The notes under the pieces are model-generated. The model did no database searches and was not told where the DNA came from. It was given only the letters and a program-made list of their open reading frames with translations. From Microbotryum violaceum (taxonomy: Eukaryota), in assembly GCA_001244265.2 (NCBI GenBank), contig CDLV01000007.1:434001-498000 (forward strand): DNA of 64,000 nucleotides, read 5' to 3'. Shown one piece after another: positions 3,851 through 35,479 of the stretch; within the stretch, counting starts at the first letter, position 1; each line of letters opens with the position of its first letter. The position numbers and the translations under genes are program-made.

Positions 3851-6800
3851 ATGGCTTCGCAAGCGGAACTCGTGAGGCGGCATCACACCCTGTCGACGTC
3901 GTCCTCGCGGCTCGTTCGGCTCGAGCGATCCCGTGCTCGGCTAGCTTTGTGAGTATTGGAGGCGCGGGTTATCTCTCTAGGCTGTCTTTGAATGTACCAA
4001 CGCTGTGAGGAATAAGTAAATCACTACTAACATCGAAGAGAACGTTTACGTCTCTATTTCGCATAGACAAGGCGTAGGTCTCAGTGAGGAGGATCAGGAG
4101 TACTACGTCCCGCCCTCGCCGATCAGGGGGTCGCTGTGGTCCGACGTCGGACACGACAGCAGCGATGCAGGTGGTTTCCCCACCTTCTTTTCTCCCCTTC
4201 CTCCTCGTCATCGACAGCGACCACCTTTGGTGCCGTCGGATCCAGACACACCGTGGCTGGCGGCGACCTGAGTTATGCCACATCACACCTCGTCGACCAA
4301 GCACACTCGGACGAGCCGACAGCGAATGCCCGAACGGCGCCCAGGGGGCAGGGTCAGGACCAGTGGATCAGCGATCACACGCGTTCCTTTCCAGCAACAA
4401 CAGAATCCTTATCGCCACCCTCGACATCGACTTCGACCGCGTACGTGCCTCCGCTTGCAGTCAAGCCCTCCGTCGTCACTAAAAAGTCGTCGTTCGTGGT
4501 GCTGCGAGGCGCCAAAGGGGACGCCGCGCTGAGCGAGCGAAGAACCGTCTCCGCCGCCACCCTGCCCCCAGCGTCCCCGATCGCCCAGTCGACGAGGCAT
4601 AACGTCGCAGCACACACCGATCCAGGGTCAACCGAACTAAAGCATCGAAATTCCCTCAAGGCTTTTCTCGATGCCGAAGGCACGGGAGGCCAGGAGGACT
4701 GGGAGCGGGGCCTCCTGGACGAGAGGGACCGCGAGGAGAGGCAATTGAGGACCGGCGGCATGCAGGTGAGCCTTGACTCGGCACGTTTCTTCTCTGCCTA
4801 GGTAGCAACGGTCTGACGCTATGCATTACGATTTTGTCTGCAGCACGACGCTGCTCCATCGGCATCGTTGGCGAATTTTGCCCCCCTCGACTCGGGCGAT
4901 TTCAATCCACACTCGCGCGCCAACGCGTATCATCACCCTTCGTCGACCTTTTGGCCCACGTCCGAGACCGACGTCATCGGTGCGCTCCGACGCCATCAGA
5001 GCCTCAGCAACTTTCATCGCCAGCCCAGCGAAACAGAGCTCGGCTCCAGCGCTGCTCCGTCCGAAGAGTGGGCCACAACGCAGCCGCACACCCGGCTCGC
5101 TAGTGCAAGCAGCGGGGACGAGACGCTGTACGGATCCATCGCACTCGCCTCGGCTGCGCCCATCACTAGCGGGACCACGCTCGGTCGCTCGCGGTCGAGC
5201 ACGAGCCCGGCACCGCATCACCATTTGCACCACACCTCTTCGCTGCGGTCGCAGGCGGGGGCCAACTCGTCTCGGTCACCGCTCAGCCACTCCAGCTCGG
5301 TATCGTCGCACCACTCGCTGCGGCATTCGAACTCGATCGGGCGGGAGCGGGGTACGCTGAGCCCCGTTGGAGGGTTTTCGCGGAGCCCATGGAGCCCCAC
5401 GGTCGAGGAAACCAAGGCGCTTGGGTCCATGAACGGCGTCGTCGGTGCGACGGGGCTGCACCGACGCGGGAGTGGGAGCTCACGAGGGAGCGCCCACGCC
5501 GCCGCCCTAGCAGGACGCCTCGACGGCAACGGACCGAGCGGAGCGTTCGTCGAAGAATTTGCCCAGCTCGAGCTCGCCTCTTCCTCAGCGCCTTACCCCT
5601 TGTCCAAGACCCCACCGTCGTACCACGACGACGCCCATCCTTCGTGGAGCCATGCGAGCTCACCTCGATTACCAGGAGCCACGGCTGTGAACCGTTCTAT
5701 GACAGCTCCCCAGGTCGTACCGCGGCGACTACCCCCGCTCTCAACGAATCTTGAGCAGGCTACGCAGGCGCAGCAGCAGTCGGCGGCCGCTCGCCATGGT
5801 CCCGCTTCGGCAGCAGCTTTTGTGCCCCCGATCGGGCATTCCCACGGCGGCAGCAGCGACATCCAGGCTTCACCTGACGAGTACGGCAGCGGCGGTGCCA
5901 CCGCAGTACCTGGCGGTGATGTCGGATCGTCATCGTACGAATGGCAACGGCAGAAGGAACTGCTGATGGGCGTCGCGCCACCTGCGAACCCGAACTCGGC
6001 TGGGTGGTCCAACGGGGCCGCTGCGGTTCCCCTCCTGGCGGCCGCCAACTACGGCGTCACAATCGCGATGCAACAGCAGCAGCAACAGATTCAAATCCTG
6101 CAGTCACAAATGCAGCAGGCGACCGAAGCCTTGAACTTGATGCGACAGCAAAGTCAGGTGCCCCTACAGGGGTCGGTGCCGACGCAGACACTGCCCTATG
6201 CCGCGCCCTACCCAATGCGTACGCCACCGACTTCCTCTTCGGCTGGTCGGTCATCGCCTTTGCAACACAGCTCGACGCCGGATCCTTCCCACCCCCGGGC
6301 CAGGCCCCGCCTGTCGTCGACATCGGCGTACTGGTCGCCAAAAAGGGGTACAACCCCATCGACTTTGACCTCCGGCCCACAGCTGCGCGCTTCTTCGTCA
6401 TCAAGTCGTACACCGAAGAGGACGTGCACAAGTCGCTCAAGTACGAGATCTGGGCCTCGACGGACCTCGGGAACAAGCGCCTCGACCGGGCGTTCCGCGA
6501 GTCGCACGAGCGCGGTCCCATCTACCTCTTCTTCAGCGTTAACGCGAGCGGGCATTTCGCCGGCGTCGCGGAGATGTTGACCCCTGTGGACTATTCGACG
6601 ACGAGCAACGTCTGGGCGTCGGACAAATGGAAGGGCGTGCTCAAGGTGCGCTGGATCTACATCAAGGACGTGCCGCTAAGTGCGCTGCGGCACATCCGGT
6701 TGAGCAACACGAGCGAGAACAAGCCCGTCACCTCGTCCAGGGATACGCAGGAGGTGCCGTTCGACGCTGGACTCGAGGTTTTGCGTGTCATCGCCACCTA

Positions 6801-7334
6801 CCCTTCGCGAACGACTCTGTTGCAGGATTATGGCTACTACGAAGCGCGCACGGTCGCCGGTCCAGGCGGCCATGGGGTGTCAGCGCCATCGTCCTCGGGG
6901 GCGACCCGCAGGTCGGCGGCGACGATCCCGCAGCCGCCAAAAACCCGCATTACGCACGCATGGCCGCCCACAACCAACAGCCTGCGGGCAACGGGCAGCA
7001 CCTGCAGTACCCTCAGAATCTACCTGCTGGCTCTAGCCCGGGGCCCTACGGCCCGCCGTCCCAACCGCAAGCGCAACTGCAGCTGCCACCATCGGGCCAC
7101 TATCCGACCACCGGTCCGGGTGCCTCGTTCCACCCCACACCGGGCTTTCACGGACATCCCTCGGTGCCGCCGCAGTACGGCGGCCACCCTTCGGCATACC
7201 AGCCTCTCTCTCTGCTGATGTATCCGCAAGCTTCATTACCGGCGCATCGCCACCAACAGCTCTCGGACGATGGCAGTCGTGGACGACGCTCGTCGTTCCA
7301 ACCCAATGGTTCGGGGCCCGGTGTTCCCTATTGA
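3851..7334 (+). CDS. YTH-domain (m6A reader-type) RNA-binding protein, multi-exon, with apparent frameshifts
   Basis: YTH domain at about 6340-6840 ([25 protein letters not shown]...[17 protein letters not shown]...SSRDTQEV). Low-complexity N-terminus is spread over ORFs 3404, 4136 and 4868. Start codon and exon boundaries are approximate. Confidence 0.8.
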
Positions 7335-7685
7335 GTCCCTCCGCCAATTCATTACTATCGATGGCCCGTATCGTGCCGTCCCGTACAACCCCTCTGTTCA
7401 TGATCGCCTTTCCGCCTCTACTTTATTCACTGTCGTGACCTGTTCTTGTTCGGACGTCTTGTTCCCCCTTCTTTCTTTCTTCTTGCTTCTCTTTGTTAGC
7501 ATCGTAACGACAGTGTACCCTTGCATATCGCCCTACGCCGGCTTCCCTTTTCCTACCCATCCTCTTTTAGCTGGAAATCTGAACCCGGCTCCACCCTCTG
7601 TAAAAGGGCTGCAGTTCCAGCGTATTAAAGACAGTGGGAGCACCTAGTTACATGTGGTGACACCCCTTTGATTGCGAATCTACTC

Positions 7686-9647
7686 CTACAACAACCAGAG
7701 AGCGCCCTCCTTGCCCATCTCTGCCTGAATGCTCGTCTTGAACCACTTGCCGGCATCGTCCTCAACGGTCGCTTTCTTGGCATCGGGATACGGTGGCAAG
7801 GCCGGCAGTTCATCGTCCGTGATCATGTGTATGGTGGGCAGCGTCTTGGGGTGAGGTAGCACCGAGGTACGAACGACTATCTCGCCCTTGAAGCGTTGTT
7901 CTTGCTGGATCTGCGCTTCGTCGCAGCCAATCAGTTTGAGCTCGACCCCGACCGAAGGCGCGCCGACGTGGGTCCTATCCGAGGCTTCGTCCTGCGTCCC
8001 GACGGGGCTGGGTAATCGCTGGGCGTCATAGTAGATCGAGTTCGCGATTGGCCCACAGATCGCCGAGTGCGCCAGCACGGACACGACGGGGATTCCCAAC
8101 GTCGCCTTGAACATCTCGGCTCGAGCCTGTTCTAACGGCGGACCCATCTCGTCGTCCGCCCCGCGGAGCAAGTGAAGAAGACGGCGCGGAGTCGCGTGAG
8201 GTGCGCGTCCTTGCGCACGCCCTTGAAGAGGAGCGAATCCCACACGGAATCGCGCGTGATGACGCCTTCGCGCAGCAGCCGAATCTTGCCGTTGCGCGAC
8301 TGTCGGATGATGGCCGCCGAGTCGCCGAGCATCCTGCTCAGAAGCAGGCGGTACAGCGGGAACGAGAGGCGCGAGGTCGGCCCAAACACGAGCGTGGCGG
8401 GAGGACCGTTCGATCGGGTCGGCGCGAGAAGTTGCTCGAGGTCCTCGTGCGTCGCTTCCTCCGGCAACGTGCGGAGCGCGAGAGAGCACGACGTGTAGAC
8501 GGTGAAGAGTGCAAGCCCGAAGCCGTAGGGCGTGCTCGGGTGGTGTAGGGACAGCAGCGAGTCGTAAATGGTGGGGCGCAACGGTTTCGGGGAGGAAAGG
8601 AAGAGCGTCGAAAACGAAACGATCGAGGCGGTAAGGTTCTGTGGGTGTTTGAGGGGTGGTGGCTCAGACGAGGGCGACGCTGTGGGTTTTGGCACCAATA
8701 TTGGAGCACTCACGATGTGGGTCAAAGGCAAGGCGACGCCGTCAGAGACGATCGTCAGCGCGACGTCTTTGAGATCAACCTCGTCCTTCTCCGAGAACGG
8801 GGACTTTTCGGCCGCTTCTTTGGCCTCGGCGAGGAGACTGCGCCCCGTGATCAAGAGTTCTGCAGCGACCGTCGGAGGGTCGTTCTCGACATCACCTCGA
8901 TCCTCCTCTTCGTCACTCGCGCCGAGCACGATCGTCTTGGCTTCAGAGGAGCCCGGAATGAATTGAACGGTCGAGAGGAGCGACGCCGAGTAGATGATGG
9001 CCCCGACCGGCTCGAGGTCGGCGGGGATTTTGCTCCCAGGCGCAATGACGATCGGTCGGTGGGCCGTCAACGACACGGCCAGGGTGGCGACAAAAGCGTC
9101 TGAGTGTGCAGGCAACAAAAATGCATCAGCACCAAAGAAGGCGACAGTCGGACTGGACTCGTGGCCGGCGCTGGCGCACGAGCGACAAAGGCTAGGTAGG
9201 TAGCAACAAACGGGGTGGACACCTACCTGCAGGATGCTCAATGACGACCGCAACAGGTTCATCCCCTTTGCCCAGGGTCGACAGAAGGCCGTGCTTGACG
9301 GCGAGCACGACGTCGAGCAGCTTGTCGCCGCGGTGGATCCACACGCTGCCTTGCTCGCCGCCTTCGAAGCAGGACTTTGACCGCTCGAGCACGTCGCGCA
9401 GTCGCTTCACGCTCTTGTCCGGTCGAATCGGGGCTCGGACGCCTCCCGTCGACGAACTGCCGTAGACGGGCGACTCGCTCGGCTTGCGCGTCGGGGCCGA
9501 GGTCGACTGGCGACCGAGCAAGAACGGGTGCGTCTGCGGCGGGGGAGGGCGAAGGAACACGGCGATACCGATCAACACGACCGCGACCACGCCCAACAGG
9601 ACGGTCGTGCGGTCAACTTTCATCGCAGCGGACAGTGGCGAAGACAT
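7686..9647 (-). CDS. Acyl-CoA synthetase-like (AMP-binding fold) protein with N-terminal membrane anchor, multi-exon
   Basis: N-terminal hydrophobic helix, then HPFLLGRQS...RKPSESPVY, REG...WDSLLF...R, HVGAPSVGVELKL and GEIVVR segments that resemble ACSL-type proteins. Spread over ORFs 9192, 8132 and 7686. Confidence 0.6.
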
Positions 9648-10494
9648 GGTGGTGGGGTGGGGTGTGATGGGACGACACTTCAACGGTGACGGCACCGCAA
9701 GAGCGAGAGGAGAGGCGAGAGAGCCTCCGCTCGCAAGTGGAGCGCCGAATGCATGCCTTGAAGCCGTGAAGAAACGGTCACCGGGGAGATTCGACTGCGA
9801 ATGAAAGCGAGAGCGACCTGATGCATTCACTTGAAAATGACGGCTCTAATTGATTGAGCTAAGCAAATGCTTTGCTTGATCGAGGACGAGGCCGCGATGT
9901 CGTGCAGCAGGTCAACGTTTTTTTGACGGCTTCCAACCGCACTCCGGCCTGTCGTCGGCGCGCGGCTCCTCCCTCGTCTCGTCGAACATACAGTCGCTCC
10001 CACCTCGAGACCCTTCGAACAGAGTGTTTTCTCTCTCCACTCTGTGGTGACAAACTTTCGGGCCCTTGAGTTAAGCACGTTCTCCAAGCGTGCTCGCGCC
10101 AAAGAAAAGACCAAAAGTTGTAAGGTATGCGCCCTGAAAAATGCTGACAATCTGTCGTTCCTGACCACTAGACCAAAGCAAGTGGGAACTAGACTCTTAA
10201 GTTCTAGATGCTCGACAATTACAGGATCTGGCCAAGACACTGATTCCCGCATTATATGCTACTACTGATTCAAGATTACACAAGATCTACACACGCTAAG
10301 AACAGCTTCGATCTATGCTTTCAGATTTTATCTTAAATCGAGGGAAATAATTTTCTTCAGAGACTAGTGCAGCAAAAATTAACGTCAAATTGAAAAGGCC
10401 GCTGCTGGAGGTGAAGGACCTTCCCCCCCATCCAAAATAATAACAAATCGGAACACGTCAGGGCGAGCTGGTCAGAAGACAAAAAGAAAAACCG

Positions 10495-10599
10495 TGCCCG
10501 CTGAGAGGATCGAACTCTCGACCTCCAGATTTCCCCCCAACCGGGAGTCACAGCTTAATACTATGAGACTAGCGTCATAACCAACTAGACCAAGCAGGC
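10495..10599 (-). tRNA. tRNA-Met(CAT), elongator type, 31-nt intron (10531-10561)
   Basis: Minus strand folds into a cloverleaf: acceptor GCCTGCT/AGCGGGC-A, A box TGGTCTAGTTGG, anticodon loop CT-CAT-A, T arm GAGAG-TTCGATC-CTCTC. T-rich Pol III terminator at 10481-10491. Confidence 0.95.
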
Positions 10600-10675
10600 C
10601 TTGATACGTGTCATCGGGGCGGGTTGTGTCATTACATTTTTGTGAGCATATCTGCTTGTTTCGCAGCTGCCAGGC

Positions 10676-10744
10676 CTTCACTTCACCTCACTTCACTTCA
10701 CCTCACCTCACTTCACTTCACTTCACTTCACTTCACTTCACTTC
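10676..10744 (+). repeat. (CTTCA/CCTCA)n pentanucleotide leader of family A element
   Basis: About 14 tandem units visible directly. Confidence 0.95.
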
Positions 10745-10800
10745 GAAATCGCCCTACCGCAGTCTTCGATACTCGAGTTAACAAGTGATACACCGACAAG

Positions 10801-13076
10801 ATGTCTACAGGAGACCCTGGGTCCCCACCGCCGGCACCGCCACCACCGGTGTCCGCGACCAGCGTCCAGCCACCCCGCGACCAGATCCCGATAAGCTCGA
10901 AGAAGACGCAAGCCACGGGCCCCGCCACCGCCGCACCCAACTATGCCGCCGCTGCGAGTCAGGCGACTCAGTCACCTGAACAACAGCAACAACAACAACA
11001 GCGTGCCAAGGCTCTGGGCAGCCTCCTACAAGCCATGGGTGCTGTACCCGGAAACCGCATGGATCGTTGGGTCCAGGCCATCTACTTCGCCGAACTCTAC
11101 CCCGTCGCCACCGCCACATCGCTGAAATTCTCGGCCTTGAACGCGAACCGGTCTGTCGAGAACATCTTTGATTACGCCCTTGAAGTGACTCTGTCTCACC
11201 AGAGCGCCTCGCGAGCGTCTCATGCCGACAAGACCGATCTCGTGGCCTGCGTCACGAGGCTGTTATCGCCGATCTCTCCTATCTGCTTTGAGCCTGGAGT
11301 TCCTCTGCCGGACCACCTTGCAGCCTATCGACCACAGATCCTAGGCGTACAACATTCATCAATCCTGCGTAATGGGGCGGCTCACCATCGCGTTACGGTT
11401 GGGTTCGTCACCGGCGAGGCCCGTGACGCTGCGCTTACGACGCCCCCTGCTCTCACTTGGCGATCGGCGAAGGCCCGCTTCGCGAAATCTCACAGGTTCC
11501 ACCATAACATGGTCGAGCTTCGAATCAACGTCGGTGTTCAAGGAGTGCCTTCCATGGATGTCATCATCAAATCGTTCCAATTACTAGTGCAGGACTTGTC
11601 AGGCAAGGGACATTCGTGCCAACTTGTGCAGGTTCTGCGCATTATCAGCGTGGACAACGCCTCGGCCTTTGCCCACGTTGCCGGAGACTACTCAGCTTTC
11701 CTACACTTCGATGACGACTCCCTGTTCAAACGCCCTAACACGACCTTGAAAGAGATCCTACCTTCGAGAATCGGCCTTCCCACTCGAGGCATCCCGGTCA
11801 CCGCCCTTCGCCATGACTATGAGAAGGAGGCGGCTTGCGGTAGGTGCCACTTCGTTGGTCACGTGGGAACCTGCGGACTGGATCAGGAGAGCAAGCGAAA
11901 GGAGGCTCACAACGGCAACGGCAACGGCAACACCAACGCCAACAAGAACACCATCACCAACGACACCAACATTGCGGAGGCCGAGGCCCCCATTCCTGTG
12001 CCGGTTGTTAACAGGATCGCATCACAGAATCGCTTCGCCGGGCTCGAGGTTGAAGAGGGACAGGAGGAAGCGGTAACTGGCCAGAGCGGACAGGGGCCAG
12101 AGGAATCGGGGGAGGAGGACGCTGGTGATAAGGCGGATGACGAGGACTCGGAGGACTCGGAGATGGAATCAGAGGCGACCGTGAAAACGGAGGCCATCAT
12201 ACTTAAGAGCGAGGACGAGTCGGTTTTAGAGGACTGCGGAGGATCCGATGGAGAGGTGATTGATGAGGATGAGGTGATGGCGGATGGAAGGGGCGAAACA
12301 GAAGGCAAGGTGGCGACGGAGATGGAGGAAAGGGAGGTGGCGACGGAGATGGAGGAAGAGGAGGTGGCGACGGAGGTGGACGATGTGGACGAGGCAGGGG
12401 GAGCGACGAAAGCGGAGAACGCGGAAGCGACGGACTTAGGGGAGACGAACAGGCTGGGCAATGACGACGACAGCGACGCAACAGCAACCGCCGCCACCGC
12501 TTCCCGCGAATCGACACCCCACGAACCAACCCCACCTTTGTCACCCGAAACTCTTGCCAAGTCGCTTCGCGAGGGGGAGGAGTGGGACAGGATCAGAGCT
12601 AACTGGGTTGAGCAGGCACGACTCGAGCGGGACCAAAGCATCGAGAGGAGGCTCGACGCTGAAACCCCTTTGGTGCGTCACAACTTTGCCACGTGGGATG
12701 AGGACGGTGAGATACGTTCCATCAATATCAGGGGGACCGCTTCGAAGTTCAAAAAGCCGGTAATGAAGAGGTCGCAGACTGCGGCGGACCTCAGTGACCC
12801 GAGTGACGAACCGACCGACGCCAAGCGAGTGATCATCAAAGGGAAGAGCCGCGTCGTTGTCAAGGATGGAACAGAGGGGCGGAGGGTGACGAGGTCGATG
12901 TCAGCGGCGGCGGCGATGCCGGTTGGCGTGACGAAAGTGGACCGAGGGAAAGCAAAGGGGTAGCCGAGGAGAAAAGATGGTCCGACCACGAGCCCGAGGA
13001 CGATGTCCTGCCCGCCCTCCCCCTCTTTGAGGACGTCACCACCGCCAAGAGCGCTTCGACCTCAACTACCCATTAA
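10801..13076 (+). CDS. LINE family A ORF1 (gag-like nucleic-acid-binding protein)
   Basis: Pro-rich N-terminus (GDPGSPPP), knuckle [13 protein letters not shown], long acidic tail. As assembled it stops at 12963; adding one G to the G-run at 12957-12960 extends it to TAA 13074-13076. Confidence 0.8.
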
Positions 13077-16000
13077 TGATTAAGCACACCATCATCACCT
13101 GGAACGTGAGGAGGGGCATGGGGGTCCCGGAGAAACGACGTGACATTTACAACTACCTATCCCTTTTCAAAGCATCGGCCATTCTCATACAAGAGCACTT
13201 CATCAGACCGCACCTCTGGCAACTCATCAAGGACGAGTACGAGGGCAAGCTCTTCATCAACCAACATTGTCTGACTCTAATTCCGGCTGACTCCCCCCTG
13301 ATCGACGCCGAGCTCTTGCGCACCCACTCGGCACTCGACGGCCGGCTCCTCGTCACGTCCTTTCGTCTGCGGGGCGACATCAAAATTCTAGAAATCAACA
13401 ACGTTTACGCGCCCGTTGACCCAAAGCAACGAGCGAAATTCTTTGACAAACTCTTATTTCACAAAACACAGAAATCCCACCTCCGACTCCTTGGCGGTGA
13501 TCTCAACGACTGCCCGCGCCCAGAAGTCGATCGGCGGAACCAAAGTCGGCGCGGCCACCACTGGCCAATCCTGATCGGCAAGCTCGACTCGGCCTACACG
13601 GACTGCATCCGCTACAAACACCCCATCACCCCATCCTTCACTCGCCTAATCCCAATCGCAAGCGACCCAACTCCTTCTCCCGGCTTGACTACTTTCTCCT
13701 GCAACGGACACACCAAAAAAGACTCGATCAGGCCTCGACGATCTACGACTATCCCAAGGAGCTTTCCGATCACCGACCGGTCTTGATTGTGCTGGCTCTC
13801 TCAGACGATCCTGATGCGACCCTCCCACAGCTCAGCCTACCTACCACATCAAACCAACTACATCGAATCAACACCACAACCTTTAAGACGGTGGAATTCC
13901 AGCGGATGATGGAAGGATGGTTGGAAGGGGCAAGCGGGGAGGAACCGGTGGGGGAGCTCGAGGTCATTCTGAAGGCGTGCAGGGATAGGGGTGGGGAGAT
14001 GGCGAGGAGGTTGCATCGGGAGCGGACGGAACGGATGGAGTATTTGGTGGGGAGGGTGCAGGATCTGGAGGCGATACCGGAATGGGGGAGGCGGAAACGG
14101 CAGAATGGACAAGGACGTCCGAGGAACTCAAGCGGGCGGTCGAGGAGCGCGCGCGCCTACTCCGGATCCGAGCCCACGTACCCGAGATCGCCTCCGAGGA
14201 ACGACTGTCGCGGCCGGTCCACGCCAAGCTCGCGGCGCGAAACTCGGACTCCAAGATCACAGCACTGCGCTTGAGCAACGGAGAGCTAACGCATGACATT
14301 GATGTCGCTCTTGACCACACGCAGGCGCATTTCCAGCGCCTCTACCACATCGAGCCTCGTGACCCGGACCGCGTCGACCGACTTCGGGACGATTTCCTCG
14401 CGCCGATCAGGGCGGCGCGGACTTGCGACGACCCGCGCTCGGATCCTCTCTTTCTGCGCCGACTCTCGGAATCCAGATCGACTTACTCCAGCGACCAATC
14501 ACCGAGGACGAGGTCGTGGCCGCGATCGGGACGACGCACCCGGGGCGATCGCCGGGACCGTCGGGCGTGCCCTACGAACTCTACCAGACCGCACCCAAGG
14601 CGTGGGCCAAGGTGCTGACCAAGGCCTACAACGCGATGATAGAGCGAGGCTCACTCTCTCCCAAGCAGGGCCAAGGACTCGTGCGCCTCATCTTCAAGCG
14701 ACACAAGAAGAATGCTGATCGCGCCGAACTTTCGGCGTACCGGCCGATCACCCTGCGCGAGTGCGATTACAAGATCTTTACCAAGGTCTATGTCGCCCGT
14801 TTGAACCAGATTCTACCGATCTCCTCCCGCCGCAGCAGCACGGATTCGTCAAGGACCGCCGATCGGCTGACGCTGCACTACACCTTCGTCTCCTGATCGA
14901 GGAAGTTGGCGCGCGCAGGACCGAGTTCCCCGCGGCCGCACTCTTATCTCTTGACCAATCGTCCGCCTACGACCTCGTCGAGCATGACTGGATCTTTGCC
15001 ATCTTTGACGCTCTGGGCGCTCCTGCCACCTTTCTTCGCGTGCTGAGGATGCTCTACTCGGGTGACTCGACCTCGGCCCGCTACATCATCAATGGGTTCT
15101 TGACGGCGCCGGTACGACTGACGTGTGGGCTCGGCCAAGGGGACCCGGCGTCGTCGTCGGTCTGGGACATCGTGTTTCAGCCGTTTCTGGATGCTCTACA
15201 CCGTCGAAACATCGCGCTGAATCTCTCCATACCTGCACTTCATCCGTACCCACAGAGCCGCGCCATTACATCGCTTGCTTTTGCCGATGACGTTGTCGTC
15301 GCCGTCGCGGGCTTGGGGTCACTCAACTTGCTCGATGACCTGGCGCTCGACTGGAGGCATGCAACGAATGGCCGGCTCAACACGGACAAGACGGTCGTCC
15401 TACCGATCGGACGCCGCTGGGACCCGGGGCAACGCCCGCTCGTCGTCAAGGCCGCAGGCGAGTCGCTCGAGTGGATCGGCCTCCCCTTCGACCCGAGCGG
15501 CGACACCGAACTCGCCTACGCGAATCTCATCGAACGCCTCGAGGCGACGCTGGAAGGGGTTCAGCATCGCTGGCTCACACACCACACCCGTGCCTTTTAC
15601 GTCAATCGGTACGCCATCCCCAAGATCCTGCACTTCCTTGCAGCCGACATCCCGCCGCCCGAAGTCGTCAAGAAGCTCGATGACATGCTCGTCGATTTCG
15701 TCCGTGGGGGCAAGGGCAGGACCAGCTACGGCAGAGATATCGTGTTCACAGCCAAGCTCAAGGGGGACTCGGGTGATCAGGATGCAGGACGTCGTGGACG
15801 CGGTTGCGGCACGGATCTGGGACGTTCTTCTCGGCGGTTCGGGCGCGATCTGGCAAGGACTTGCGCGCGTGGCACTCCAGCGAGCTCAGTCCGACCTCGA
15901 CCTGGCCACCGATCTCTGGCCACATCCATCCACTCCCATCCCCAGCGACCTCCATCCCCGATGGCGAGCAGCATTGGGGGTTCCGAAACAGCAAGACGCG

Positions 16001-17169
16001 CAGGTCAACCCGAGGACCTTGACCACCGCGAACCTGCTCGCGCTTCCCACCTTGCTCGGCAGCCTCCACACCCCCATCAGAGGGAGACAGACCATCGACG
16101 CGGTTCATATACCTGACTACCTTCGTCTCCAGGGCTACCCGAAGGTGGCGGATCTCTACCGGCGCGAGTTGTATGCGGGTGGGGGGTTTCACCTTTGGAC
16201 GCCGCCGGCGGATGTGCTCGGCGACAACAGCGAGTACGATCGACGCGGGCTCCCGCAGCGACTGGCAATCGCGGCCTGGTACCGGTTCACTGTCGATCGA
16301 CACAAGAACACGCCCTTGGCGGTGGCGGTGGCGGCAGGACGGCTCAACGTGCCTCCCCGGATCGGCACCAGCGCACCGCTCGAGGCGATTATCCCCAAGC
16401 CCGTGGCCCGCTTCGCAATGGAGCAGCGCCTTCCGGACCCGGTGCTTCCACAGCAGGCGAGCCAGTACAAGCTGCTGAACATGGCTCGACCGTACACCAT
16501 CCGTCGCATCCGCCGGGTCCTGAACGCGAAGGCCTTTACCAACACGCTCGGGCTCAAGGGACCACCGCAGCCGGACGACCTCAGGAGCTTTTGGAAGGCG
16601 GTCAACTCGAAGGCACTGACGGCGAGGGAGAGGGAAGTTTGGTTCAAGCTGATTCTCCGCTTCACCCCGACGCGCAAGCTGCAACACCAACAGAATCACG
16701 ACACTTCTCCCGCGTGCCTCGTCTGCGAGGCGCCGGTGGACGACACCGACCACTACTTTTTCGACTGCGTTGACTCTGGGAACGTTTGGATCGCGGCAAG
16801 GAGCGTGCTCTGCGACGCACTGGGGCTCGACACGATCGACAACACGCATTACACGGCTGTTCAACGCATGTTCGGACTTCCGAAGCTCAAGGCCAGTCTA
16901 CGCGATCAAGAAGGAGCGGGAGGACGATCGAAATATTCACCGGGCTGGTCTTGGAGATGATCAGCAGCGGGAGGTGGGGGATGCAGAAGTGGGGGACGAG
17001 GACGGAGGGTGTTGGGAGAAGGAGGATCATCTTGGAGGAGAGGTTGAAGCTGAGGGCGGGAGGAGCTTGGGGAGGAGAGGGCAGTAGAGGCTGGGTTCGA
17101 CTTTCCCCCACCACCACCACACACACACACCAAACTCTCGTGACATCATTTTCTCCTACTGTACACTAA
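13076..17169 (+). CDS. LINE family A ORF2 (AP endonuclease - reverse transcriptase - CCHC finger), several frameshifts as assembled
   Basis: ITWNVR, LIQEH, NVYAP, GGDLND, SRLDY and SDHRPV (APE); SPGPSG, YRPITL, QHGF, GLGQGDP and AFADD (RT); CLVC...HYFFDC. Confidence 0.9.
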
Positions 17170-17742
17170 ATAGATCGCTTTCATCTTTCATTTGTTACAG
17201 GTTCACCGTTGCGGATCATGGACCATCTCGCGATTTGGCGTCGACTCGGTGTGGCTCGCGCTCTTCGGCTTCGGGGTTCTGAGTCAAGGGAGGGATCAGC
17301 GGACACAGGCAGAAAGTCGGCTTTGAGGGGCCAGGGACTGCCGATGGGGAGGTTTTGAGGGACCTTCACCGCGTCTTGTTGTGACTGAGCAGAGACTTGG
17401 AGCGTCGAGGGTCGTGGTGGTTGCGCAGTCGTGCTCTTGTCTTCGTCTCGACCGAGTGGGAAGTGGCTGTGGGGTGGGCCTTCTGTCGTTAGTACATTTC
17501 TTTTCTTTCTTTTTTTCTCTTCATCTCTCTTTCTCTCTCTCATTAGTCTCCTGGGGGGGAGCAACCGCTTGGCTAGGGCATTTGAATCCGAATCTCGGAT
17601 TGGTGGACTTGGCTCGTTTCTCGCACTTTTGCGGGCGGTTTGTGTTATCATCGTAGTCTTCCATCTAGTTTTTTTCCGTAGGCCAAAACAGGGGGAACAG
17701 GAACTGGGGGCAATATGATGAACGTTTTCTACAAAAAAAAAA

Positions 17743-19577
17743 GTCACAGTTCCAACCATCAAGTCCGAACTCCTTACGCTCCCGAATTGCTCTCGCTTCC
17801 GCCTCGCCTCCCTTCACTCTATGCTGAAGGTGCCAAGCACGCATATGACGATGCGGACGCAGTGGCGAAGTTTGCGCAGATCGCGGACCTGTACTGGAGG
17901 GACGAAGGGAAGGGCTGGGCTCTGGTTGGTCATCGACGCGGGTTCTGGCAGCACTCTAAGGAACCCGCCCTACAGCACGAGCACGTGTGGTCGCGCGTGG
18001 GTCAGTTGCTCAAGGCGAAAGCCTTGCTGCCCAAGACCGCGTTGCGACCTGCTCGGATACCTCTCAAGGAGGCTCCCCGTCCTCGGTGCTTCAACTTCTT
18101 TGGGCTCACCCGACCGTTCACTATTCGCAAGCTTCGTCGGCTTGTGAACGTGGTTCGGTTCCCAGGGAGGGAGGATCGTGTCAAGCGTTTCCGTGATGGG
18201 ACTTCTCAGAGCGATAGGAAGCGCTTCTGGAGATGGCTTCATGACCGGTTTGCGTCTGCTGTGGAGCAGGACACCCACTGGCGGCTCATGTACGACGTGA
18301 CGCCGACGCGCAAGAGGCAGCATACTCAGGGTCATGCCTCTTCGCCGACGTGTCTGTTCTGCGGCAACGATGCAGCGGTCATCGAGACGGTGTCGCACTA
18401 CTTTTTCGAGTGCGCGTACTCGACCAGCTTCTGGGGTGGGGTGCTTCGCATTCTGTTCGACAAGCTGGGCATCGAGGATACCGACGTCGATCCGTCGACG
18501 TTCACTCCGGAGCAGCTGACTATGGGGCTCCCCCTTTTGCGGGGTCGTGGGAGAACGACCTCGAGATGGATGTGGGTTCGGCTGGCCTGCGCGATCGGCT
18601 TCCAGCGGCTGCACCTGCTCCGCTGGCGCGTTCATCAGCGGTTCGAGAAGGACCGCGTCGTGGCCCCTCCCTCGATCCCCAGTGCACTCAGAGCGTTCGA
18701 GCGAGATTTTCTCTCTCGAGCGGGTTTTGTGCCTGGGGCTCGAGATTGGGAGGTGTGATGACCGACGGTTTTTTGTTCTTGGGTGGATCGGCAAGCCAGG
18801 TCGATTGTCTTTGCGTTGGAGGCTTTGTGAAGTTTTTCCCTCTCCTTTCCCCCCTTTTTTTCCCTTCCCTTCCTCTTCTCGTTCCTGTTGCTCGGTTGTT
18901 GACTACGCTTCAGCCACTTTTCCTTTTACTCCTAAGCCGTGTGTTGGATTCCGTTGAATGGTTCGTTCGTTCGCGTTGGTCAAGATCTACGGCATGGCTC
19001 GGGAAGGAAGGTCGCTCGTTTCTGGTCAATATCCTCGCGTCAAGGCGAGGCTCGTTTCGTTGTTCTGGATCGCTTTTCTCTCGGCCCCGACGGCTCAACA
19101 GCCAGCACTCGAGATTCAGCCAAGGGAGGACATCAGGCGCGGTCGGGGTGACGAGTAGCTGGGGCTTGGCTGCGGCCTGTTAGTCCCTGGGGACCTCTAC
19201 CTCCGGCTTCGACCCCCTACCTTGGCCCCTCGGGTGTGTTCCCCTCCTCTCTGTCTTAGTATTCCTGGTTCTCCGTATCCCCAGTTGTGACTTTCTGTAT
19301 ACTCTCCCCCTTCTTTCTCTAGGCGCTCTTGCCTGGTTTTCGAGTATCTTTGCTCCCGCTCTTGGGACGTGAAGCGGCAGCAGTACTCACCGCCCGTTGG
19401 AGTCCGCGTTAGGTGCTCGGCGGGTTTTGATCTGCGCAGCGCTCTTTGCGCGCAGGGGTTTGACTTTCACCCAACTGCTTGCCGTCGTTGCTTTATAACC
19501 TCCTTTAGCCTTTTTGTAGCGGTCCCAGCCAACCCGAAGGATTGCAATTTATGAGCCCCAGTCAAAAAAAAAAAAAA
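17743..19577 (+). mobile_element. 5'-truncated family B copy; its first 12 bp lie at 10663-10674, split off by element A
   Basis: Near-identical to 24839-26812; ends in A14 at 19564-19577. Confidence 0.93.
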
Positions 19578-19582
19578 CGCAT

Positions 19583-20026
19583 GGGAGGGATCAGCGGACA
19601 CAGGCAGAAAGTCGGCTTTGAGGGGCCAGGGACTGCCGATGGGGGAGGTTTTGAGGGACCTTCACCGCGTCTTGTTGTGACTGAGCAGAGACTTGGAGCG
19701 TCGAGGGTCGTGGTGGTTGCGCAGTCGTGCTCTTGTCTTCGTCTCGACCGAGTGGGAAGTGGCTGTGGGGTGGGCCTTCTGTCGTTAGTACATTTCTTTT
19801 CTTTCTTTTTCTCTTCATCTCTCTTTCTCTCTCTCATTAGTCTCCGGGGGGGAGCAACCGCTTGGCTAGGGCATTTGAATCCGAATCTCGGATTGGTGGA
19901 CTTGGCTCGTTTCTCGCACTTTTGCGGGCGGTTTGTGTTATCATCGTAGTCTTCCATCTAGTTTTTCCGTAGGCCAAAACAGGGGGAACAGGAACTGGGG
20001 CAATATGATGAACGTTTTCTACCAAA

Positions 20027-20030
<4 letters not shown>
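19583..20030 (+). mobile_element. 5'-truncated family A copy (3' UTR only)
   Basis: Near-identical to about 17288-17732; ends in an A7 tail. Confidence 0.92.

Positions 20031-20086
<56 letters not shown>
20031..20086 (+). repeat. (CA)28 leader of family B element
   Basis: Perfect dinucleotide repeat. Confidence 0.97.
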
Positions 20087-20088
<2 letters not shown>

Positions 20089-20161
20089 GTGTGTACCGTC
20101 GTGTAGTGTGTACAGTCGCCCACCAACCGCTTCAAGAGCTACAGGACGACGACAAGAAGTG

Positions 20162-21865
20162 ATGCCGGATCCGCCCGGCCCACCCCCGCACCCGCCCAAC
20201 GCTCCGTGGGCTGGTGACGTGTTGAGAGATGAATCACTCAACACGGAAACCCGTGAGACGGTCACTGGAGGAACCGTTAATCCTCCAGCCTGGTCTGCCC
20301 AGGCTTCTCAGGCTCGATTGGACCATGAGAAGTCGATGCAGAAGGCTTTCAAAGCCCTTGGCATCGTACCATCCTCCAAGTCGACCCGCCGGCTGATGGT
20401 ACTGTTGCATGACCCTTCCAGCCCGCCTTCGCAGGCGCCGGCTCTCGCACGAGCTGCTCAAAGGGCGGTACGAAACGACGCGATGCCGGCCTCCAACGTG
20501 ATCCGAGTCATCATGGATGGTACTGGGTCCCCAAGAGGCCCTGTACAGATTGCGCTGCGTAAGCACTTTGGGCTGGCCGAGACGCCATTCATGTTCGCGC
20601 GGCCCGAGGGCGCCGAGCTTGACCCCGAGGTCGAGAAGCTCTTCTCGAAATGTGTGAAGCTGAACCCGATCGTGACGAAGGCAACGAAGAGGTTCCCGAT
20701 TGCTCGTCATATGTACGAGCTCGTGTTCGAATCCGACCAGGCCTGTCTCGAAGCCGCTGCAGCGGGTCCATTCCCCTATCACGGAAAAGAGATGGTCACC
20801 GAGCTCCCGAGTGTTTCCCCCCTAAACCACATCGTCCAGGTGCGATTCACCTTACCCTCCTCTTCCAGCGCGATTCCCGCTTCCGTGCTCCGAAAATCTC
20901 TCGACGCTGCTCTCACTTCCTCCTTCGGCCACGCTGGTTGCACGCAAGGGTATACCCTCATGCAATTACAGCGGGGCCTCGCGGTCGATCCGAACGGTGA
21001 CCCGATGGCCATGACCGAAGACGGGTTCCACTGCGCGTACCTTCGCTTACATGCTGATCTTTTCCAAGGCTCCACCGAGACGCAGAAGGCTGCGCTCAAC
21101 GCCGCCTTGCCACAAGAGATCGAGATCCTGGGCGCCAAGTACGGCTTGCGACACGAATTTGAGACGCACTACTGCGCCGTGTGCGATCGCGCCGGACACC
21201 AGTGGGGGGCTTGCAGGAAGCCGGTTTCGACTCCGGCCACCGCCGCCCCTGTTCCGGGGGCCTCGACTTCGACTTCGACTTCGACTTCGACCACCGGCTT
21301 CCGAGTTGCCGGAAAGAATGGGAAGCACGGTGGGCCTGCCGCATTGAACTCTCGTGCCTCTGGCACGAACATGATCCAGCTGGGACCTCGTGCTAACCCC
21401 GCAGGTGCAGCGACCGGCAACAAGGACGATGCGAACGACGGCGACGGTGACGACGACGACGACGACGGCGAATCGGTCGCTTCGACCGAACCGGAGGGCG
21501 GCGACACTGGGAAAGAGATGTTGACCCGTGCGACCACGGGCCCAACAAAGGAGACGCAGACGACGACAGCGGCGCCCGTTTCGACCCCGACCTCTCCTTC
21601 GCCTTCTACTTCTGCTCCGGCATCGCCTATGTCCGGTGGCACGTCGGAATCATCGGCAACCGCGACGACCTCGATAGCCTCGACGAGTCCTCGACGCCTT
21701 CGTTCGAGCTCGGCACCCGGCAACCGACGTGTCACCCGGGCGGGATCCGCCATGATCCACGGTGCATCAGGGGGTGACGACTCAGGGGGCAACAGTTCAG
21801 GGGGTCACAGGTCCGAGATGACCGAATTCGAGGGGGCGGCGCTGATCCAATTTATTCATGATTGA
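20162..21865 (+). CDS. LINE family B ORF1
   Basis: MPDPPGPPP start, CX2CX4HX4C knuckle CAVCDRAGHQWGAC, disordered tail. Its stop overlaps the ORF2 start (ATGATTGA). Confidence 0.85.
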   Translation: MPDPPGPPPHPPNAPWAGDVLRDESLNTETRETVTGGTVNPPAWSAQASQARLDHEKSMQKAFKALGIVPSSKSTRRLMVLLHDPSSPPSQAPALARAAQRAVRNDAMPASNVIRVIMDGTGSPRGPVQIALRKHFGLAETPFMFARPEGAELDPEVEKLFSKCVKLNPIVTKATKRFPIARHMYELVFESDQACLEAAAAGPFPYHGKEMVTELPSVSPLNHIVQVRFTLPSSSSAIPASVLRKSLDAALTSSFGHAGCTQGYTLMQLQRGLAVDPNGDPMAMTEDGFHCAYLRLHADLFQGSTETQKAALNAALPQEIEILGAKYGLRHEFETHYCAVCDRAGHQWGACRKPVSTPATAAPVPGASTSTSTSTSTTGFRVAGKNGKHGGPAALNSRASGTNMIQLGPRANPAGAATGNKDDANDGDGDDDDDDGESVASTEPEGGDTGKEMLTRATTGPTKETQTTTAAPVSTPTSPSPSTSAPASPMSGGTSESSATATTSIASTSPRRLRSSSAPGNRRVTRAGSAMIHGASGGDDSGGNSSGGHRSEMTEFEGAALIQFIHD

Positions 21866-24800
21866 GTCCCTCACCGTGTTGACGTTCAACGTCCGATCGA
21901 TCAAGAACGCAGTCAACCAAGTCAAAATCATCCGCTATCTCAAAACCCTTCGGCCGGCCCCTGCGGCCATTCTCCTGCAAGAGCACCACCTCAGCTACAA
22001 CGCGTTGCGCGAAGGCTTCGAGATTGCTTGGCCAGGAGCTTGTATTCGTTTCGCACCTCATGTCCTTACCCTTATACCCGATGGCTCACCTCTGGCGGGC
22101 CGCCTCCTCTCCTCTACCCCGGTCGTGTTTGCAGAAGCCCCTCAATTCGACGGTCGGATCCTGCGCTCGGTGTTTCGTCTTGAGGAGCTCGATATCGAGA
22201 TCATCAACATGTATGCGCCGGTCAAGGGGGAAGAACGTCGCGACTTCTACGGGCTCCTGCACTTCACCGCTCCGGGGCCCAAGACTCTTCGGATCTTGGC
22301 CGGCGATCTCAATGATTGTCCGGATGTATCGGTCGACCGAGTGGCCATCACCGATCGCGCTTGGACTCCTGTATCGCACTGGCAGACCTTGCTGTCAAAG
22401 ATCGCATTCAACCCACTCGACACGATCCGACAACTCCATCCCATCACCCCGGCATTCACTCGCCCTCACTACCTTGGTAGGGGGACAAACGAGAAATCTG
22501 CTCGTGGTCGCGGATCGATTATATCCTTGTCCAGCGCAGTTGGGCAAACCGGTTGTTGAGCGCTTCCACACTTTTCGATGCGCCCTGCTCGGACCACAGA
22601 CCTGTAGTTGCGACTTTCGCATTGCCTACATCGAACGCTGATGCCGAACCCCCCTTTCTCTTCCCTCTACGAGCGATTTCATTTCGAGGCTCAACCCAAC
22701 GGTCTTTGACGATCAAGACTTTGTCGCATCGATTCCCGGGTCGTCGACGAGGTCTATCGAAGGCTGGAGGGGACCGTTCCGCTCGGCGACGTCTATGACG
22801 CCGCTCTGCGGGCGGTTGCAGTCGCTGGCCATGCACGATACCGCTCGACTCGTGCCGACATGCGCCGACTGCGGGCCGAGAACCAATCCGTCATGGAGGC
22901 TTTGGAGGCACGCGGTGAGCACATGAATGAGGCCGAGCGCGATGCGTATGCTTTTGCCAAGTCGCGGTTGGACCAGTTGGCGGTAAAGGAGGCACAGTGG
23001 CTGCGCATTCGTGCGCATGTGCCGTCAGTCGACTCGAGGAAGGTCAATCGGCAAGCATTCGCACGCGTCTCAACCGCCGGAGTCGCCAGACGAGCATCGT
23101 CTCGCTGGAGGATGTGGATGGCACCGAGACCGTTGACATGCAGGAGGCGCTGGGCATTGCTTCACGGCACGCACAGTCGCTCTTCACGCCGGACCCAGCT
23201 CGTGGCGACCCGACGAACCCACGTCGGTCCCTGCTCGACCCCATTCGCGCGGCGAAATGCTACGATGACGACCGCTCGGACCCTACGTTCGGTCGTCGGC
23301 TGCCTCGTCAAGCGAGAGTGGCGCTTGACGAGCCCTTCACCCTCCTCGAGGTTGAAGCGGCGTTGAAGAAGACGGATTCGGGGCGATCACCGGGGCCCTC
23401 GGGCATTCCGTACGAGCTCTTCAAGGCGCTGCCAACCTACTTTGCTCCCAAGCTGTTGGATTTGTTCAACTCGATTTGGGAGGGGGGTAAAATGACGGCG
23501 TCCTTGGCAGAGGGGCTGGTGCGGCTTTTGCCCAAGAACAAACCGGGGGCCAATCTGAAATCACTGGGGGCATATCGACCGATCACACTGCGCGAGACAA
23601 CCTACAAGGTCCTCAGCAAGGTCTTGGTGGCGCGACTCAATGGGGTGCTCGGCGAGCTTTTGCCGCCGGCGCAACACGGGTTCATGCCATCAAGACGTTC
23701 AGCAGACGCGGGAAGTCATCTCACTCTCCTTCTCGAAAAACTCAAGTCGCTAGGCACTGAAGTTTTCCCCGAGGGCGCCCTCTTGTCCTTGGATCAGCAG
23801 AGCGCGTACGATCGGGTCGATCACGCATGGATCTTCGACGTCTTCGAGGCCTTTGGCTTTGGTGAGCGTTTCATTTCCCTGCTGCGCGCTCTGTACGATC
23901 CCGAGACTCTGGGGGTGCGCTACCTCATCAATGGGTTCCCCACGGAGTTGGTGCGGTTGCTGTGTGGTCTCGGTCAGGGGGATCCCCTCTCGTTCCCGGT
24001 TTGGAACATCACGTTCCAGCCCTTCCTCGACGCCCTCGTTCGGCGCGGGATCGCGCTCGACCTGCAGAAGGTGTGGCCAGGGGGGCCGCGTGCGCAGCTT
24101 ACGCATCTGGCGTTTGCCGACGATGCTGTGGTGGTGGTGGAGTCACCGGCGGCATTGTCGAAGCTGGAAACGCTGTCGCAGACGTGGTACGAGGCAACCA
24201 ACGGGAAGACCAACACGGACAAGACGCTGGTGCTACCACTCGGACCGAACTGGCTTCGGGACGAGACTGCGCAGGCGCTGCCAACGGTGCAGGAGGGGGA
24301 GAGCTTCAAGTGGTGCGGCTATGCCTTCTTTCGCCACGGTGACTCGAAACTGTTTTGGACCCATGTTCTTGACAGGATCAAGGCCAAGACCCGCGCCGCT
24401 GGAGACCGGACACTTTCGCCGAGTGGGAAGGTCTTCTATGCCAACGCTCACATCATCTCGACGGTCCTCCACGTGCTGTCCTTCGACATACCGCCTCAAT
24501 GGTTCATTAAGGCGGCGGAGACAGCACTTACGGATTTTGTCTGGGGAGGAGCAGGGCGAAATACCGTCGCTCGCGATTTCGTGTTCCAGGCTCGGGAGGA
24601 CGGTGGCTTGGGCTTGATTTCAATCGGCGACATCGTTCATTCGGTGGCGCTTCGATTTTGGGATGCTGTGGCGGGCTCGAACGAGGCGATCTGGGCGCCC
24701 CTAGCTCGCGAGAGCTGGAGGTCCCTCGTCGCTGCGACCCGCGATTTCAGTCCGTGGGGGTTCTTCAGCAGCACGGCTCGGGTCGAGAAGCTGTATCGCG

Positions 24801-25855
24801 ACTCGACGCGCTGGGGGGCAGTCGTTGCAGCTGCCAGGGTCACAGTTCCAACCATCAAGTCCGAACTCCTTACGCTCCCCGAATTGCTCTCGCTTCCGTC
24901 TCGCCTCCTTTCACTCTATGCTGAAGGTGCCAAGCACGCATATGACGATGCGGACGCAGTGGCGAAGTTTGCGCAGATCGCGGACCTGTATTGGAGGGAC
25001 GAAGGGAAGGGCTGGGCTCTGGTTGGTCATCGACGCGGGTTCTGGCAGCATTCTAAGGAACCCGCCCTACAGCACGAGCACGTGTGGTCGCGCGTGGGTC
25101 AGTTGCTCAAGGCGAAAGCCTTGCTGCCCAAGACCGCGTTGCGACCTGCTCGGATACCTCTCAAGGAGGCACCCCGTCCTCGGTGCTTCAACTTCTTTGG
25201 GCTCACCCGACCGTTCACTATTCGCAAGCTTCGTCGGCTTGTGAACGTGGTTCGGTTCCCAGGGAGGGAGGATCGTGTCAAGCGTTTCCGTGATGGGACT
25301 TCTCAGAGCGATAGGAAGCGCTTCTGGAGATGGCTTCATGACCGGTTTGCGTCTGCTGTGGAGCAGGACACCCACTGGCGGCTCATGTACGACGTGACGC
25401 CGACGCGCAAGAGGCAGCATACTCAGGGTCATGCCTCTTCGCCGACGTGTCTGTTCTGCGGCAACGATGTAGCGGTCATCGAGACGGTGTCGCACTACTT
25501 CTTCGAGTGCGCGTACTCGACCAGCTTCTGGGGTGGGGTGCTTCGCATTCTGTTCGACAAGCTGGGCATCGAGGATACCGACGTCGATCCGTCGACGTTC
25601 ACTCCGGAGCAGCTGACTATGGGGCTCCCCCTTTTGCGGGGTCGTGGGAGAACGACCTCGAAATGGATGTGGGTTCGGCTGGCCTGCGCGATCGGCTTCC
25701 AGCGGCTGCACCTGCTCCGCTGGCGCGTTCATCAGCGGTTCGAGCTGGACAAGGTCGTGGCCCCTCCCTCGCTCCCCAGTGCACTCAGAGCGTTCGAGCG
25801 AGATTTTCTCTCTCGAGCGGGTTTTGTGCCTGGGGCTCGAGATTGGGAGGTGTGA
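21858..25855 (+). CDS. LINE family B ORF2 (APE - RT - CCHC), frameshifts in the 5' third as assembled
   Basis: LTFNVR, LLQEH, NMYAP, AGDLND, SRIDY and [36 protein letters not shown] and GGLGL; CLFC...HYFFEC. Confidence 0.92.
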
Positions 25856-35468: not shown

Positions 35469-35479
35469 GTACAATTCTT

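Follow-up and report, generated by a model that had tools for sequence, protein, structure and literature searches.

How does a 7-kb retrotransposon come to lie exactly 12 bp inside another one, just upstream of a tRNA gene, with no base duplicated and none lost? This question is raised by a 64,000-nt stretch of DNA from Microbotryum violaceum (contig CDLV01000007.1, positions 434,001–498,000 of the forward strand). We refer to this whole stretch as the window; it is gene-dense, eukaryotic in character and ~58% G+C, and all coordinates below are window positions. Two families of long interspersed nuclear elements (LINEs) are involved. Element A occupies 10675–17742, and family B is defined by a long copy at 20087–26834; when we speak of an A or B position, we give the window coordinate within these copies. 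Our analysis indicates, with a probability of roughly 85%, that A and B are two related LINE families that integrate by target-primed reverse transcription (TPRT) in a narrow zone upstream of tRNA genes and build up stacks of elements there. Distances to a tRNA gene are counted from the 5′ end of the mature tRNA. The features at the nested junction are as follows.

10495–10599, minus strand: tRNA-Met(CAU) gene with an intron of ~31 nt (Rfam, 46.2 bits); its 5′ end is at 10599 and a T-run terminator lies just beyond 10495.
10600–10661, no strand: flank of 62 nt between tRNA-Met and the stack, common to other lineages only up to 10655 (-56).
10662–10665, plus strand: left copy of CGCA, which may be a duplication (4 bp at most) made by the truncated B insertion, or microhomology.
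10663–10674, plus strand: B sliver, the first 12 bases of the truncated B, severed from the rest by A.
10675–17742, plus strand: element A, 7,068 bp (open reading frames (ORFs), Pfam, tandem repeat, poly(A) at 17733–17742).
17743–19577, plus strand: remainder of the 5′-truncated B, with the C-terminal part of ORF2 including zf-RVT, the 3′ untranslated region (3′UTR) and poly(A) at 19564–19577 (self-BLAST, Pfam).
19578–19581, plus strand: right copy of CGCA, compared with A at 17285.

The junction can be read base for base. At 10663–10674 the string GCAGCTGCCAGG is followed by CCTTCACTTC..., which is the start of A, and the ten A residues that end A (17733–17742) are followed by GTCACAGTTCCAACC from 17743 (GTCACAGTTCC...), a stretch that begins GTCACAG. 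In the long B copy both strings adjoin, at 24827–24838 and 24839 onward. The GGG found across this join in intact B is split here into GG (10673–10674) and G (17743), with 0 bases duplicated and 0 lost. This confirms the exact junction without duplication or loss that a first-pass annotation of the window had proposed. Downstream of A, self-BLAST aligned 17743–18765 with 24839–25862 at 98.5% identity, and the truncated B at tRNA-Met matches 24839–26834 in two segments (98.5% and 96.7%). Upstream of A, base 10662 is C where B has T (24826), and thus the B-derived piece is 12 nt long.

Each of the two strings occurs exactly twice in the window, the 12-mer at 10663 and 24827 and the 15-mer GTCACAGTTCCAACC at 17743 and 24839 (0.01 expected for the latter). 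When the window was shuffled, a 12-mer with at most one mismatch was matched 0.55 times on average, and two or more matches arose in 9 of 100 shuffles, a result that would be weak taken alone. It is the position that counts: the 12 bases before A are the 12 bases before the point at which B resumes, which by our own arithmetic has a chance of ~4^-12 at a fixed place. Because A interrupts B, A is the later arrival, and the order of events suggested earlier is borne out. The split B copy is itself 5′-truncated, beginning at the equivalent of 24827 in a B that runs from ~20087 to 26834. The earlier placement of A 12 bp inside the 5′ end of B thus stands for the 12 bp, while the "5′ end" is a truncation point and not the true start of B. 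Similarly, the repeat of CGCA at 10662–10665 and 19578–19581 is present as described, although the left GCA is also B sequence and the right CA may be part of the next A copy; as a target duplication it is weak, being either 4 bp at most or microhomology. Taken by itself, the nested junction is nothing unusual; what makes it valuable is the clean evidence it gives on the order of events and on a site choice independent of sequence.

To place the junction in other genomes, we searched public sequencing runs with 8600–11000 and found that 20 runs from 6 studies hold part of this query. Four runs (X1, X5, X10 and X11, all as Logan contigs) were compared over 9600–19640, and the joints, insertions and deletions reported for them are those among the matches listed. 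X1 may derive from the very sample behind the window. X10 has the same species label and belongs to a different study; X11 is labelled as a different species. Across 1,056 bp of flank, X10 and X11 each show 15 differences from the window (~1.4%). The X5 flank contig stops at 10541, inside the tRNA-Met gene, and gives nothing on the junction. Uninterrupted B, in which ...CAGTCGTTGCAGCTGCCAGG runs directly into GTCACAG, is present in contigs of three of the four runs (X5, X10 and X11), so continuity is the normal state of family B.

The same contigs bear on the possibility that repeat copies were wrongly stitched together in a long-read assembly. The window assembly seems to contain length errors of 1 bp: the unique flank at 9600–10655 has one gap relative to all four runs, all four runs have 8 added bases in A, 6 of which are in G runs, and the right junction is found in none of the contigs listed. 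However, a false join would hardly leave two ends that complement each other in B to the very base, without loss or gain. Additionally, a 38.5-kb X1 contig at single-copy depth passes from the unique flank into the 12-mer, matching 9600–10668 without substitution and thus reaching six bases into it. This contig has 59 more letters over 10669–10750, a stretch that was masked as repeat and hence not compared; it fits the assembled left junction. The first-pass argument against misassembly gains from this contig, with the proviso that X1, as perhaps the window's own sample, is not independent. We consider a stitching error extremely improbable.

The tRNA-Met locus is one of two tRNA genes in the window, and both (2/2) carry a LINE stack. 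Rfam found both genes, whereas ARAGORN found only tRNA-Asn and missed tRNA-Met. The outer layers of stack 1, at tRNA-Met, and the features of stack 2, at tRNA-Asn, are as follows.

19580–20030, plus strand: older 5′-truncated A copy consisting of the last ~450 bp and ending in A7 (98% identity to 17285–17740 by self-BLAST).
20030–20086, no strand: (AC)28 array between the short A and the long B, which may be B 5′ end, old flank or tail.
20087–26834, plus strand: long B copy with an A-rich tail, 5′ limit approximate (ORFs, Pfam).
26836–26905, plus strand: short relic that by eye resembles the B 3′ end and closes stack 1 on the outside.
35294–38211, minus strand: stack 2, all layers with the 5′ end toward tRNA-Asn, beyond a 70-nt flank.
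38211–37012, minus strand: B copy truncated at B 18287, the first layer from tRNA-Asn.
37011–35914, minus strand: A copy truncated at A 16679, followed by a 16-nt filler.
35898–35840, minus strand: tiny B 3′ end.
35837–35511, minus strand: A-like relic, 80–87% identity.
35431–35294, minus strand: B-like relic, ~82% identity.
38282–38372, plus strand: intron-bearing tRNA-Asn(GUU) gene (Rfam, 53.8 bits; ARAGORN).

Read outward from tRNA-Met, stack 1 consists of the 62-nt flank, the 12-nt B sliver, A, the rest of the truncated B (ending in A14), CG, the 450-bp A 3′ end (A7), (AC)28, the long B and the short B-like relic. The short A copy has a single substitution in 442 aligned bases. In stack 2 the outer layers are the most diverged, with identity falling from 98% to 80–87%. 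All ten LINE pieces found in the window lie within the two stacks, and all ten have the 5′ end facing the tRNA 5′ end. In other genomic contexts, contigs of the four runs contain poly(A) ends that pass straight into truncated elements (17742 plus AAC to 18421, 19539 plus A14C to 13493, and 19579 plus G to 19167), which indicates that stacks exist at other loci. A further joint in X1, from 10526 to 18124, may mark another tRNA locus with a B copy, but with only 20 letters on one side and unspecified letters between it is too weak to serve as evidence. Inside the A-like relic of stack 2 there are a run of ~30 C and a duplicated 30-nt unit (35650–35740).

Within these stacks the distance of the 5′ junctions from the tRNA is nearly constant: -64 for B and -76 for A at tRNA-Met, and -71 for B at tRNA-Asn. 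Two of the other runs carry alternative alleles at the same tRNA-Met. The X10 allele follows the flank to 10655 (-56), continues with ACTCGA and enters A from 16408, for a junction at ~-63. The X11 allele also follows the flank to 10655 (-56), continues with ACTTTCATT and enters B from 18117, for a junction at ~-66. Both elements again have the 5′ end toward the tRNA. Thus three lineages have three different tRNA-proximal elements at the same tRNA-Met, at ~-63, -64 and ~-66. The X10, X11 and window insertions look like independent hits on one spot, and with the later A at -76 there are four independent hits on one 13-bp zone. Neither the X10 nor the X11 allele has the 12-mer beside the flank; both depart from the window at 10655, and the suspicion that an empty allele already held the 12-mer finds no example here.

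Although the distance is held, the target sequence is not. The bases at the three integration points in the window are unrelated, one being a flank/A joint, one B coding sequence and one another flank/A joint. A has no duplication (0 bp); that of the tRNA-Met B does not exceed 4 bp (CGCA), and that of the tRNA-Asn B does not exceed 2 bp (TG, which is also B sequence). The sample is small, with five junctions between -63 and -76 from two tRNA genes and two further alleles, but it supports the proposal of the first-pass annotation that the site is set by distance from the tRNA, since the targets share nothing. Upstream of tRNA-Asn there is a TATATA at ~30–37 bp (38245–38252), and ACAAAAATGTAAT is found 33–45 bp upstream of tRNA-Met (10632–10644). 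The LINE junctions lie ~25–40 bp beyond these TATA-like or A/T-rich motifs.

Two other explanations are addressed by this geometry. Tx1 inserts into another transposon, and A could be a Tx1-like element specific for a sequence inside B, with the tRNA incidental. The clean insertion without duplication at a defined B position is what such an element would give, and the nearest named relatives outside the genus are automatically named "Transposon TX1" (~30% identity). However, three other A copies have different 3′ flanks, all unlike GTCACAG: (CA)n at 20031, GCGGCCTCGCTCTCCT at stack 2, and AAC followed by B from 18421 in X1. So far as these copies go, other A insertions do not share the site. 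Additionally, the X5, X10 and X11 contigs read straight through the B site, and the X10 A copy abuts the tRNA flank directly. Specificity of A for a site in B is thus largely refuted, and we assign it next to no likelihood.

Alternatively, integration may be random, with only those copies persisting that landed harmlessly upstream of tRNA genes. In a gene-dense window such as this one, it is plausible that insertions elsewhere were selected against. None of the 23 other long window ORFs contains a reverse transcriptase (RT) or apurinic endonuclease (APE) domain, and those with Pfam matches are ordinary cellular genes (among them F-box/WD40, YTH, NPR2, CHORD, CorA, TAF6 and Hsp70). Survival would nevertheless leave unexplained the 13-bp spread of the junctions, the shared orientation of 10/10 pieces and the fact that three lineages were hit independently at one and the same spot. 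We regard this explanation as unlikely.

Taken with these results, the nested junction points to repeated TPRT at a set distance upstream of the tRNA gene, with a scatter of ~13 bp. Each newcomer would insert on the tRNA side of the element before it, or else slightly (a few bases) within the 5′ end of that element. At tRNA-Met a 5′-truncated B would have come first, with its junction at -64 and possibly a 4-bp duplication of CGCA, and before the arrival of A it would have read ...GCAGCTGCCAGGGTCACAG... Full-length A would then have been reverse-transcribed in place between -75 and -76, 12 bases inside B. We infer blunt or near-blunt cuts, which would split B without duplication or loss. A newcomer landing slightly farther out would leave a sliver of the earlier element on the tRNA side, and the 12-mer would be such a sliver. 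One landing slightly closer would carry a piece of flank outward; the CG after the B tail and the 16-nt filler of stack 2 may be such pieces.

That A lies inside B coding sequence means that the zone was still hit once its original DNA was gone. This, and the absence of any motif common to the targets, speaks for a protein landmark. Most likely, the site would be measured from the RNA polymerase III (Pol III) transcription complex (TFIIIB/TFIIIC) and not read from the DNA sequence. Tethering of A and B to Pol III factors as the means of doing so is speculative.

The arrangement at tRNA-Met could also have arisen in one step, if a read-through B-A-B transcript from another locus, where A had entered a full-length B, had been reverse-transcribed from the poly(A) of B and 5′-truncated 12 nt upstream of A. 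The nesting would then have taken place elsewhere than at this tRNA. The possible CGCA duplication does flank the whole unit of 12-mer, A and B, which fits in-place integration equally well. 5′ truncation is also common in both families, with starts at 16408, 16679, 17285, 18117, 18287 and 18421. For a composite, however, the truncation must fall within 12 nt of A in ~4.7 kb of upstream B, a chance of ~0.3% by our own arithmetic, whereas in-place targeting predicts a sliver of 0 to ~13 nt from the junction spread of -63 to -76. Moreover, no contig among the matches listed has a longer B ahead of the A 5′ end. We therefore consider a composite transcript very unlikely.

Several observations weigh against targeted, stepwise integration as we describe it. 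A, supposedly the youngest element, has its ORF2 in six frames, which would be surprising if the breaks were not assembly errors. Since contigs end within the (CTTCA)n array at the start of A, other full-length copies do not fix the A 5′ terminus. The sample is limited to two tRNA loci and two alternative alleles, and the 6 to 9 nt between 10655 and each element are unexplained, leaving the junctions uncertain by a few bases; when 10656–10662 was searched by k-mers for a source in A or B, nothing beyond scattered 8- and 9-mers came up. The young copies differ pairwise by 0.2–2.1%, which gives no order of arrival. In contigs, the left junction is supported by X1, which is possibly the window's own sample and has its final 59 letters in masked repeat, and no contig among the matches listed bridges the right junction between 17742 and 17743. 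Lastly, one locus from a metagenome scan (L001, positions 1–12388 of a 12.4-kb contig) holds a LINE that is 43% identical to B ORF2, with the order ORF1, APE, RT, zf-RVT, but has no tRNA even at E values up to 1, and the 5′ end of this LINE abuts a copia-type long terminal repeat (LTR) element. Of the three loci that the scan returned, only L001 was usable; the other two (L002 and L003) are fragments of 1.4–2 kb.

The broken frames of A may have a technical source. A has a (CTTCA)14 array at its 5′ end (10676–10744), followed by ORF1 (10801–12963; 720 aa, with one CCHC-like knuckle) and by ORF2 (APE, RT and zf-RVT; 13031 to ~17090), which the assembly breaks into six frames. All four runs have one extra base at each of eight sites in A (13644, 14083, 14473, 15761, 15770, 16917, 17068 and 17345). 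When eight bases were added to the A ORF2, only two long frames remained, of 622 and 790 aa. Thus the window assembly may contain homopolymer length errors at about one per kb that create false frameshifts, and A may in fact be nearly intact. An extra base is also present in all four runs at 17780 and 19509, and the extra-base sites are mostly G or C runs. At the 5′ end, a multi-copy X11 contig (depth 306, compared with 29 for the flank) reaches 36 letters upstream of 10751, so at least part of the (CTTCA)n array belongs to A. Both long elements start at or beside a microsatellite, (CTTCA)14 for A and (AC)28 for the long B; these arrays could be element sequence, untemplated additions or old flank.

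Other features of A concern its copies elsewhere. A joint from A 16029 back to 13090, with an intervening TAAA, occurs in all four runs; it is a rearranged or nested A copy common to four genomes. A relative of A annotated in M. silenes-dioicae is 82% identical in the RT. Word depth is 76 in the X1 flank and runs to thousands over A and B, climbing toward their 3′ ends; depth is not copy number, but the climb fits many 5′-truncated copies.

The long B copy has an ORF1 at 20162–21865 (567 aa, CCHC knuckle) and an ORF2 at 21846–25855 (APE, RT and zf-RVT) whose APE part is interrupted by frame breaks. Annotated M. silenes-dioicae proteins match B ORF2 at up to 99% identity, and many further matches come from M. 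saponariae and M. intermedium, which places the window in an anther-smut fungus (Microbotryum). Right after the ORF2 stop there is a 152-bp segment (25863–26014) that starts GTTAAGT, contains CTGAC and a (CT)n tract, and ends CAGTAG. Both truncated B copies lack exactly this segment (between 18765 and 18766, and between 37735 and 37734), which looks like a spliceosomal intron in the 3′UTR. If it is an intron, spliced RNA would have been the template for some B copies. Each of the four runs has loose ends at 18765/18766, which indicates that intron-bearing B copies exist in all four genomes. A second intron-like segment of 87 bp (19235–19321, GTGTGTT...TTCTCTAG) lies in the B 3′UTR of both stack 1 B copies and is precisely missing from the tRNA-Asn B copy (between 37268 and 37267).

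From their sequences, A and B can both be classed as APE-type (L1-superfamily) non-LTR retrotransposons. In each, Pfam identifies Exo_endo_phos (APE), RVT_1 and zf-RVT in that order. Among solved structures, human LINE-1 ORF2p comes closest (E = 2e-28, compared with 1e-18 for R2). Poly(A) tails (17733–17742, 19564–19577 and 37012–37026) and frequent 5′ truncation are further LINE traits. Self-BLAST of the window found no LTR or terminal inverted repeat, and Pfam gave no RNase H match in A or B. In the RT region A and B are 48% identical, whereas their ORF1 proteins have no similarity in BLASTP. In both ORF1s the start is nonetheless rich in proline, one CCHC-like knuckle is present, and the tail is acidic and of low complexity. 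Neither has a Pfam match even at E = 10, and a feature search of the Atlas returned CCHC and ZCCHC3-like RNA-binding clusters (0.85–0.91), which are leads only. Searching ORF1 with HMMER against 1.84 billion representatives recovered 20 proteins, 16 at 64–99% identity and only 3 at 26–31%. An AlphaFold model of ORF1 from a 9-row alignment had a mean predicted local distance difference test score (pLDDT) of 54.

Integration beside Pol III genes is a classic retrotransposon lifestyle in compact genomes. Among APE-type L1-superfamily elements, the Tx1 group of LINEs (Tx1, Keno, Mutsu and Dewa) is known for strict target choice, in some cases at small-RNA genes. These LINEs recognise a DNA sequence and insert within their target. 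A and B differ in that their target sequences vary and only the distance to the tRNA is constant. Among LTR elements, Ty3 and Ty1 of Saccharomyces are described as likewise targeting the region upstream of Pol III genes through Pol III factors (PMC5911963). They differ from A and B in being LTR elements with an integrase, with Ty3 inserting at the transcription start and Ty1 up to ~1 kb away.

The closest functional parallel is TRE5-A (also called DRE) of Dictyostelium discoideum, which is reported to insert ~50 bp upstream of tRNA genes with its 5′ end facing the tRNA 5′ end and has been studied in a retrotransposition assay with a marked element (PMC3159450). As described in these sources, TRE5-A has two ORFs, an ORF2 with APE, RT and a zinc finger, a single orientation and frequent 5′ truncation (PMC3159450, PMC5911963), all as in A and B. 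The distance is different, 40–54 bp for TRE5 as given in the review compared with -63 to -76 for A and B (PMC5911963). ORF1 of TRE5-A is stated there to contact TFIIIB, and B-box mutations to abolish TRE5-A targeting (PMC5911963). The host differs as well, an amoeba for TRE5-A and a basidiomycete for A and B, whose duplications are 0–4 bp. The A-, B- and C-module untranslated regions of TRE5-A are not seen in A and B, which have the (CTTCA)n array and intron-like segments instead. A and B would be filed as working like TRE5, a functional class assigned by geometry and not by descent within the TRE clade.

NLTR-B of Polysphondylium pallidum and NLTR-A of D. purpureum offer a second comparison, since the review describes them as non-LTR elements that gained upstream tRNA targeting separately from TRE5 (PMC5911963). 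The 39–64 bp range given for NLTR-B overlaps that of A and B (PMC5911963). Both of these dictyostelid elements are described as having RNase H in place of the zinc finger (PMC5911963), whereas A and B have zf-RVT.

In the sections of this 2018 review that we drew on, tRNA-targeting non-LTR elements are listed only from dictyostelid amoebae (PMC5911963). The M. lychnidis-dioicae genome paper gives 134 tRNAs for its assembly and LINEs as 7% of transposable element sequence, and the portion consulted draws no link to tRNA genes (PMC4469406). Our search of the full-text literature, with Repbase, subscription journals and supplements outside its range, did not turn up a report of tRNA-targeted LINEs in any fungus, Microbotryum included. 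A and B appear to be new position-specific LINEs upstream of tRNA genes, in a basidiomycete, and their targeting is probably independent of the dictyostelid cases. A fungal case would mean an independent origin in a genetically tractable group, in which comparison of the two families could help to find what determines targeting. Such a case would further demonstrate that a protein landmark, and not a DNA sequence, can guide TPRT, which is relevant to the design of safe-harbour insertion tools.

Beyond the targeting itself, we lean somewhat toward a more specific proposal. A and B would be a basidiomycete TRE5-like system that evolved on its own, in which elements with related ORF2s and unrelated-looking ORF1s integrate 63–76 bp upstream of tRNA genes, head-to-head with the gene, independently of sequence and with near-blunt cuts. 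If this is true, tRNA loci record successive insertions as ordered stacks that differ between close Microbotryum lineages and could serve as markers. Additionally, the ruler for distance from the Pol III complex may then sit in ORF2 and not, as proposed for TRE5-A, in ORF1.

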